8,080 nt of DNA from the IMG/VR virus record IMGVR_UViG_2703719366_000016; one strand, written 5' to 3'. Positions within the stretch are counted from its first letter, which is position 1. The number at the start of each line of letters is the position of its first letter. Shown piece after piece: positions 1,870 to 2,121 of this stretch. The notes beneath the pieces were generated by a model. It searched no databases. It had not been told where the DNA came from and was given only the letters and a program-made list of their open reading frames with translations. The DNA is from a virus (taxonomy: Duplodnaviria; Heunggongvirae; Uroviricota; Caudoviricetes). Position numbers and translations under genes: made by a program.

Positions 1870-2121
1870 TCAGGCAGCCTTGTTGTAAATGTTGCAGGTA
1901 TCAAGTAAGTAATTAGATGGAGCGCCATAAATTATGAATTCATCGTTTGTCGGGTCCATCTCCATCTCTTGTCCTATTGCCATTCTTGCGTCAGTGTCGT
2001 CAGCGGCGAAGCATAAAACAGCCCACGCACCCATTGTTTTAAAAAGAACTGCAATTGGCTGTGGTTTTACTGAATTTGCGTTAGCGCGAAAATCACAAAT
2101 CGCACTTTCATGAAATTCCAT
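1870..2121 (-). CDS. Hypothetical early protein, 83 aa, in the position of lambda ral
   Basis: ATG at 2121-2119 with SD-like GAGGTGA upstream, stop at 1870. Co-oriented in the pL operon between N and ea10. The sequence does not resemble lambda Ral as I recall it except the last residues (NKAA). No recognisable motif. Confidence 0.6.
   Translation of the reverse strand: MEFHESAICDFRANANSVKPQPIAVLFKTMGAWAVLCFAADDTDARMAIGQEMEMDPTNDEFIIYGAPSNYLLDTCNIYNKAA

Follow-up and report, generated by a model that had tools for sequence, protein, structure and literature searches.

A selected accessory gene of lambdoid and P22-like phages as one cassette of a hot spot downstream of N

The 8,080-nucleotide (nt) stretch of DNA analysed here (IMG/VR record IMGVR_UViG_2703719366_000016), referred to throughout as the window, corresponds to the early region of a lambdoid Escherichia coli O157:H7 prophage; it includes an open reading frame (ORF) of 83 codons with an ATG start (1870-2121, minus strand), located immediately downstream of the antiterminator gene N. 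This ORF is almost certainly a true gene under selection, part of the accessory repertoire of lambdoid and P22-like enterobacterial phages, lodged in the variable slot between N and PreS/tL2a that ral holds in lambda. The gene and its uncharacterised status are already known to the literature and databases: the gene, which an earlier note on this DNA could assign to no family, corresponds to H0090 of VT2-Sakai, to ECs_1180 (ECs1180, NP_309207.1) of prophage Sp5, where it is also numbered ORF21, to WP_000394299.1, to PHROGs family phrog_2471 and to UDP0060 of a published screen (Silas et al., bioRxiv 10.1101/2023.04.06.535777; counter-defence part PMC12373910). It bears the name “hypothetical” in every source, and no literature on the gene, on ECs1180 or on phrog_2471 was found beyond Silas et al. 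and Mondal et al. 2016 (PMC5155283).

Evidence for a selected gene

The ORF starts 58 nt past the N stop codon and is preceded by the ribosome-binding site (RBS) GAGGTG (2131-2126), 4 nt ahead of its ATG; with N on one side, ea10 on the other and synteny with lambda, the earlier note’s description of a real early gene of the pL operon, equipped with a good RBS and directly downstream of N in the ral slot, is borne out. The predicted protein belongs to phrog_2471, whose profile it matches end to end (residues 1-83 against profile positions 1-83, E=1.4e-61). Homologs sharing 70-84% identity are present in prophages of Enterobacter, Citrobacter, Klebsiella and Salmonella, and the family as a whole is confined to enterobacterial lambdoid and P22-like prophages. 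The gene is common within these limits: the identical protein is encoded on at least 1000 contigs, by 403 of the 5426 complete genomes of E. coli and in 57 phage records, including those of the phages mEp234, HK106, HK633 and Gally, which are not Shiga toxin (Stx) phages.

Strong purifying selection acts on the gene, with pairwise ratios of nonsynonymous to synonymous substitutions (dN/dS) of 0.08-0.24 and synonymous sites saturated between clades; the RBS and the start codon are conserved as well. The alternative that the ORF is spurious or decaying and lacks a protein function, for which the absence of a known domain and the failure of structure prediction could be invoked, deserves practically no credence, since it is effectively refuted by the selection analysis, in which synonymous change is saturated across genera, and is further contradicted by the conserved translation signals, by 43 invariant columns among 10 sequences and by the exact recurrence of the sequence on so many contigs. 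The antisense frame is open only as that frame predicts and has no conserved start codon, and no conserved overlapping or antisense ORF was found.

A cassette between conserved boundaries

The window shares 98.7% identity with lambda over positions 1133-1886 (lambda 33350-34103), and lambda ral ends at 34087. Because lambda identity reaches window position 1886, the mosaic joint falls within the final 17 nt of the ORF, which is thus not, as the earlier note had it, entirely on the non-lambda side. These 17 nt encode the C-terminal ..NKAA followed by the stop codon, and Ral carries the same ..NKAA. When the gene ends of the window, lambda (ral), mEp234, mEp213 (orf184) and Sf6 (gp34) are aligned, all cassettes run into a single conserved block of ~175 nt, whose first element is a hairpin with a 9-bp stem and then UUUAUUUUU (window 1881-1860). 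This hairpin is common to lambda ral, to mEp234 and, with compensated changes, to orf184, and its 5' arm is made of the codons AAG GCU GCC UGA, that is, K-A-A-stop. It is because the hairpin arm encodes these residues that Ral (..NNKAA), the 83-residue protein (..YNKAA) and orf184 (..VDKAA) end alike without kinship.

The mEp234 record labels the hairpin a rho-independent terminator. Compared with shuffled sequences, the 56 nt around the stop codon have no exceptional folding energy (z=-1.4), and the terminator call thus rests on the stem and U-tract, on their conservation and on the independent mEp234 annotation. The remainder of the block corresponds to the Sf6 boundary sequence bsq4 and tL2A. 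The stretch just downstream of the ORF is ~99% identical to the LPR1/PreS region of lambda, the same stretch that is annotated as bsq4 in Sf6; in lambda, LPR1/PreS is an Hfq-dependent small RNA (sRNA) of ~88 nt with its end at tL2a and a reported up-regulating effect on dnaN. As Rfam has no PreS model, a gathering-threshold or E-value scan finds nothing there.

On the upstream side, the 58-nt linker that separates N from the ORF accompanies the gene after N genes of three different types, and the last 29 nt of this linker, RBS included, are identical ahead of the unrelated orf184 in mEp213. A search with the flanks only shows that these same flanks enclose inserts of varied size and content in 333 phage records, alternative occupants being ral, orf184, BP-4795 ORF18 and Sf6 gp34-36. 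Variable content between conserved flanks is what defines an accessory gene for Silas et al., and the gene is one cassette of a recombinational hot spot. The cassette is exchanged by recombination at two short conserved boundaries, the RBS linker upstream and the K-A-A-stop hairpin at the 3' end.

In other genera, too, the gene normally comes directly after N, whichever N family is present (PF25694, lambda-type N36, HK97 type or no recognised family), and synteny with lambda and P22-like phages places it downstream of N and upstream of ea10/cIII, in the position of Ral. In one P22-like phage (S9-5) it follows sieB, and in a Citrobacter prophage (L004), which has no recognisable N, it follows a TerB-like gene and a DUF3927 gene. 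In loci L005/L007 and L023-L025, two N-like genes flank the ORF or a truncated remnant of it (PF25694 or N36 upstream, PF26859 or PF25694 downstream), and L023-L025 also carry a 23-residue Ral fragment; the paired N-like genes and the Ral fragment look like recombination scars in the slot. The 3' boundary is itself altered in HK633 (L019, 3501-3890), where the 83 codons are identical and a 1-nt deletion in the last codons, from GCTGCCTGA to GCTGCTGAT, removes the stop; the annotated HK633 product hence reads through the hairpin and is 129 residues long.

Gene order and other features of the window

The best matches for the window as a whole are O157 chromosomes, and it is 99.7% identical to VT2-Sakai/Sp5 across 4.5 kb. 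Its minus-strand features are given below in the direction of transcription; pL and nutL are transferred from the AP000422 annotation with an offset of 4301.

4204-4905, minus strand: cI.
3181-3702, minus strand: ECs1184/ORF23 of Sp5, 173 residues, between cI and pL in the rexAB position (phrog_2602, E=3.5e-102).
2670-2642, minus strand: pL promoter, TTGACC-17-TACTAT (AP000422 annotation).
2596-2556, minus strand: nutL (AP000422 annotation).
2180-2452, minus strand: antiterminator N, 90 residues as annotated, ORF open to 2524 (PF25694, E=2.3e-32).
2122-2179, minus strand: intergenic linker between N and the ORF, with the RBS GAGGTG at 2131-2126 (cassette alignment).
1870-2121, minus strand: the 83-residue gene (ECs1180, H0090, ORF21 of Sp5, UDP0060; ORF and match to phrog_2471).
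1860-1881, minus strand: terminator-like hairpin, 9-bp stem then UUUAUUUUU (shared with the ral, mEp234 and orf184 cassettes).
~1706-1793, minus strand: LPR1/PreS sRNA homolog, ~88 nt, with the tL2a hairpin (1714-1735) as its end (coordinates from the lambda alignment).
1319-1687, minus strand: ea10 (DUF2528), the gene with which the lambda-like side opens downstream of the slot.
1094-1259, minus strand: start of cIII, cut after ~38 codons by IS629/IS1203.

No Pfam family is found for ECs1184, apart from a sub-threshold match to an integrase SAM-like N-terminal domain (E=0.047). The insertion sequence (IS) that interrupts cIII, a copy of IS629/IS1203 of the IS3 family, fills the window from 1 to ~1130, with a masked run of N at 283-315. 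The cIII RNA thermometer (Rfam RF01804, 88.5 bits) is intact at 1201-1259 and is the sole strong match of an Rfam scan of the window, which finds nothing at the locus of the 83-codon gene. The IS occupies different positions of this prophage in other O157 genomes: strain 7784 has it between cII and O, and TX 376-2 has it within the 83-codon ORF itself. A hydrophobic ORF of 86 codons (2110-2370, plus strand) runs antisense to N and to the linker that follows it, and is listed under the name “ORF B54” in record AP005153 of an Stx1 phage; no evidence of its being a gene was found, its conservation not having been examined.

Predicted expression and properties of the protein

The stretch from pL through N to the ORF, the N-to-ORF linker included, has no predicted terminator-like site; together with the terminator-like hairpin placed on the stop codon, this suggests that the protein would be immediate-early, made along with N before antitermination. 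N, immediately upstream, is probably co-transcribed with the gene, and N and the 83-residue protein would, judging from this layout, be the two immediate-early products of pL. No promoter belonging to the gene itself, from which it could be expressed in a repressed lysogen, is predicted.

The protein has a mass of ~9.2 kDa, an isoelectric point (pI) of 4.24 and a net charge of about -7 (12 acidic and 5 basic residues out of 83), and is devoid of transmembrane segments (0 by TMHMM). The invariant positions of the 10-sequence alignment include the segments KPQPIAVLFK, W..VLCFA, IGQE and IYGAP and two invariant cysteines. A Pfam scan at E≤1 and an NCBIfam scan assign it to no family, and a profile search of 1.84 billion representative proteins retrieves the family itself only; two long matches from that search (P0021 and P0022) were discarded, because in these repeat proteins the score is the total of many weak matches to the repeats. 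AlphaFold2 (AF2) gives an alpha/beta model with a predicted local distance difference test score (pLDDT) of 52 when provided with the 10-sequence alignment and an all-beta model with a pLDDT of 57 from the single sequence; the two models disagree, and structure prediction fails because the family is too shallow.

Proposed function and alternatives

The product is pictured as a small, soluble, acidic cytoplasmic protein that would bind and neutralise a factor encoded by the host or by a prophage as soon as infection or induction begins, its most likely target being an anti-phage defence that is not represented in the strains screened so far. Such a mechanism, in which an immediate-early acidic protein binds a defence or host factor, is put forward tentatively, with confidence that falls somewhat short of even. 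It is supported by the constraint acting on a real gene, by its constant position across N and immunity types, by the free swapping of the slot between shared boundaries, by the early transcription layout, by the acidity of a protein lacking transmembrane segments and by the IS-disrupted and frameshifted alleles, which show the gene to be dispensable in nature. Neighbours that use the same slot also meet host immunity: Ral counteracts type I restriction-modification (R-M), and orf184 triggers the Gop-beta-cII abortive system (Silas et al.). The earlier note had reasoned that the first gene after N often serves anti-restriction or host takeover; this positional reasoning is sound. The slot is a recognised accessory hot spot, and “Ral” regions rank second among the accessory regions of enterobacteriophages (Silas et al., 10.1101/2023.04.06.535777).

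Several results weigh against the proposal. The protein has no likeness to a known anti-defence protein, as no defence family of PADLOC-DB matches it at E≤1; a profile search of the PDB by sequence yields chance matches only (E≥0.09), and a Foldseek comparison of the alignment-based model with the PDB and BFVD returns nothing below E=0.1. Together with the Pfam and NCBIfam scans, these searches leave the unannotated phrog_2471 as the only family, in agreement with the earlier note, which could not assign one. More directly, the exact protein was synthesised as UDP0060 (from mEp234, AFM76313.1) for the 200-gene accessory screen of Silas et al. (10.1101/2023.04.06.535777), and it is not among the counter-defence, conditional-lethal or host-sensitising genes reported for MG1655 and ~20 ECOR strains with T-phages, P1 and lambda; any target would thus be outside that panel or would require the phage context. 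For phi330, a phage carrying the gene, DefenseFinder reports no anti-restriction-modification system, and Gam (anti-RecBCD) is the sole other anti-defence function that the phi330 study reports for its phages. Finally, Mondal et al. 2016 (PMC5155283), who used a K-12 lysogen to delete Sp5 ORFs of unknown function in frame and without markers, obtained 43 mutants and failed with only two ORFs, ORF21 (the gene considered here) and ORF23 (ECs1184), and undeletability is not expected of a pure counter-defence gene.

A counter-defence function suggested by the earlier note would be that of a functional analogue of Ral that alleviates type I (EcoKI-family) restriction or enhances modification in place of ral. 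Occupancy of the ral slot with the same last residues, early expression suited to anti-restriction and an acidity reminiscent of some anti-restriction proteins would fit it. Yet the EcoKI check proposed in the note has in effect been run: in the pooled screen of MG1655 with lambda, which reads out EcoKI and included the exact protein, ardA, ral and ocr are the sole listed hits in 3/3 replicates (PMC12373910), a result of a pooled rather than an individual assay. Moreover, hhalign detects no homology with Ral or with Lar (probability ≤0.2%), so that a Ral-type identity cannot be upheld, and it is the terminator stem at the mosaic joint, not homology, that accounts for the NKAA found in both. 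In L012, a closely related O157 prophage whose N, cI and ECs1184 proteins are the same, the nin region (13027-14190, beyond the right end of the window) encodes a Lar-family restriction alleviation protein and a Dam-like phage N6-adenine methyltransferase, and anti-restriction functions thus sit elsewhere in the genome of this prophage type. A Ral analogue is accordingly scarcely credible, and the protein is not, as far as its sequence tells, one that works like Ral or has kinship to it.

A host-takeover protein unrelated to defence, modulating for instance N/CII proteolysis, replication, transcription or division, is unlikely, if not negligibly so. Co-expression with N at the earliest time would suit such a role, as would the presence of other small modulators in the pL operon (cIII, kil, gam) and the lack of a counter-defence phenotype in the screen. 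The protein has no homology to known modulators, however, and its expression caused no reported toxicity or conditional lethality in the screen of Silas et al.; in addition, the swapping of the gene for unrelated cassettes and its loss through IS insertion or frameshift are more in keeping with a gene caught up in an arms race than with one that modulates core physiology.

The protein could also have a phage-versus-phage function such as superinfection exclusion, or be an anti-phage factor, or a decoy or trigger for abortive-infection systems. Silas et al. (10.1101/2023.04.06.535777) label several of the regions considered here “RalSupEx”, sieB adjoins the gene in the P22-like phage S9-5 and at another locus (L020), and the Gop-beta-cII trigger orf184 occupies the same slot. 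A gene for which no promoter of its own is predicted would nevertheless be silent in the lysogen, and the protein, with neither a transmembrane segment nor a PADLOC match, is absent from the exclusion hits and cell-death triggers of the screen; a function of this kind is improbable.

Is the gene required for lysogeny?

From their two failed deletions, Mondal et al. (PMC5155283) suggested that ORF21 and ORF23 are needed for stable lysogeny. The protein would then be a lysogeny-maintenance or antidote factor that keeps the prophage early region non-lethal, either by damping leaky N-dependent Kil or by neutralising a toxin, and its removal would kill the lysogen; the exclusive failure at these two ORFs and the usual adjacency of the gene to N are in line with this. 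Nature provides a counter-example in E. coli O157:H7 TX 376-2, where the gene is split by IS1203 and has no second copy in the genome, in a prophage whose N, CI and ECs1184 proteins are the same and whose kil, cIII, gam, bet and exo genes are intact. Frameshifted alleles are likewise present in otherwise intact-looking prophages, the stop codon is gone in HK633, related phages carry other cassettes in the slot, and the gene occurs with unrelated N types and immunity regions and in the absence of ECs1184. These observations argue that prophages can do without the gene in nature, which is what one would expect of an accessory gene. An antidote would also have to be expressed in the repressed lysogen, for which no promoter is predicted. 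As a toxin-antitoxin antidote specifically, the gene was rejected: its neighbours vary, apart from “an N gene”, it has no conserved overlapping or antisense ORF, and its loss through IS1203 or frameshift is tolerated.

The two undeletable ORFs are exactly those that flank pL-N. The homology arms, cloned in repressor-free hosts, therefore probably carried an active pL-N, and a technical cause of the deletion failure, unrepressed pL-N in the arms, is plausible. One caveat applies to the natural knockout, namely that the IS1203 insertion is polar, so that lethality dependent on downstream genes may be masked. An antidote role is, all in all, very improbable, and the same holds for its more specific form, in which ECs1180, as an immediate-early protein, would restrain N-driven Kil or another prophage toxin and the IS1203 knockout would survive only through polarity on the downstream killers.

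Significance

The slot after N is among the most variable accessory regions of lambdoid phages and holds Ral and at least one abortive-infection trigger; uncharacterised occupants are thus reasonable candidates for new counter-defence or host-takeover functions. Since the gene considered here is common and is present in the Stx2 prophage Sp5 of O157:H7 Sakai, its function would bear on the biology of Shiga-toxin phages. The present analysis adds the precise boundaries of the cassette, the recognition that its Ral-like C-terminus is a terminator stem rather than a mark of homology, a natural knockout (TX 376-2) that weakens the published suggestion of a requirement for lysogeny, and a technical cause that could lie behind that suggestion. 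As a candidate the gene is reasonable without being remarkable, and its sole odd record, its undeletability, is weakened by the natural knockout.

Comparison with known systems

Lambda Ral (PF11058), which alleviates restriction and enhances modification by type IA R-M systems, is the natural term of comparison, as it occupies the same pL slot between N and PreS/tL2a and is likewise a small early protein whose ..NKAA-stop is embedded in the same terminator-like hairpin. The likeness stops there: the 83-residue protein has no Pfam hit at E≤1 and an hhalign probability of 0.2% against Ral, it lacks the four-cysteine pattern of Ral (as read from the translated lambda sequence), and Ral scored as an EcoKI inhibitor in the pooled screen whereas the 83-residue protein did not. 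The spacing differs as well, since the present gene directly follows N and lambda ral lies ~750 nt beyond it.

The alternative occupant orf184 (mEp213 gp45, AFM76385.1) is preceded by the identical 29-nt RBS linker, ends with ..KAA-stop in the same hairpin and encodes an acidic-looking small protein. Its sequence is nonetheless unrelated (hhalign probability 1%) and longer (107 against 83 residues), and orf184 has a reported phenotype whereas the gene considered here has none.

The DNA mimics Ocr and ArdA are also small, early-expressed and acidic. The acidity of the 83-residue protein (pI 4.24, net charge about -7) is much milder, with acidic residues making up 12 of 83 (14%), and no match in sequence or fold links it to them, the alignment-based AF2 model (pLDDT 52), which disagrees with the single-sequence one (pLDDT 57), having no Foldseek match at E≤0.001. 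Unlike Ocr and ArdA, it shows no EcoKI phenotype in the pooled screen, and the decoy-sensing systems that Ocr and ArdA trigger are not triggered by it (Silas et al.).

Lar/RalR of Rac-type prophages, a type I toxin paired with the RalA sRNA, represents restriction alleviation in lambdoid prophages. It differs from the present gene in its genomic position, shares no similarity with it by hhalign and, unlike it, is accompanied by an antisense partner, no conserved antisense ORF or RNA being evident at the 83-codon gene.
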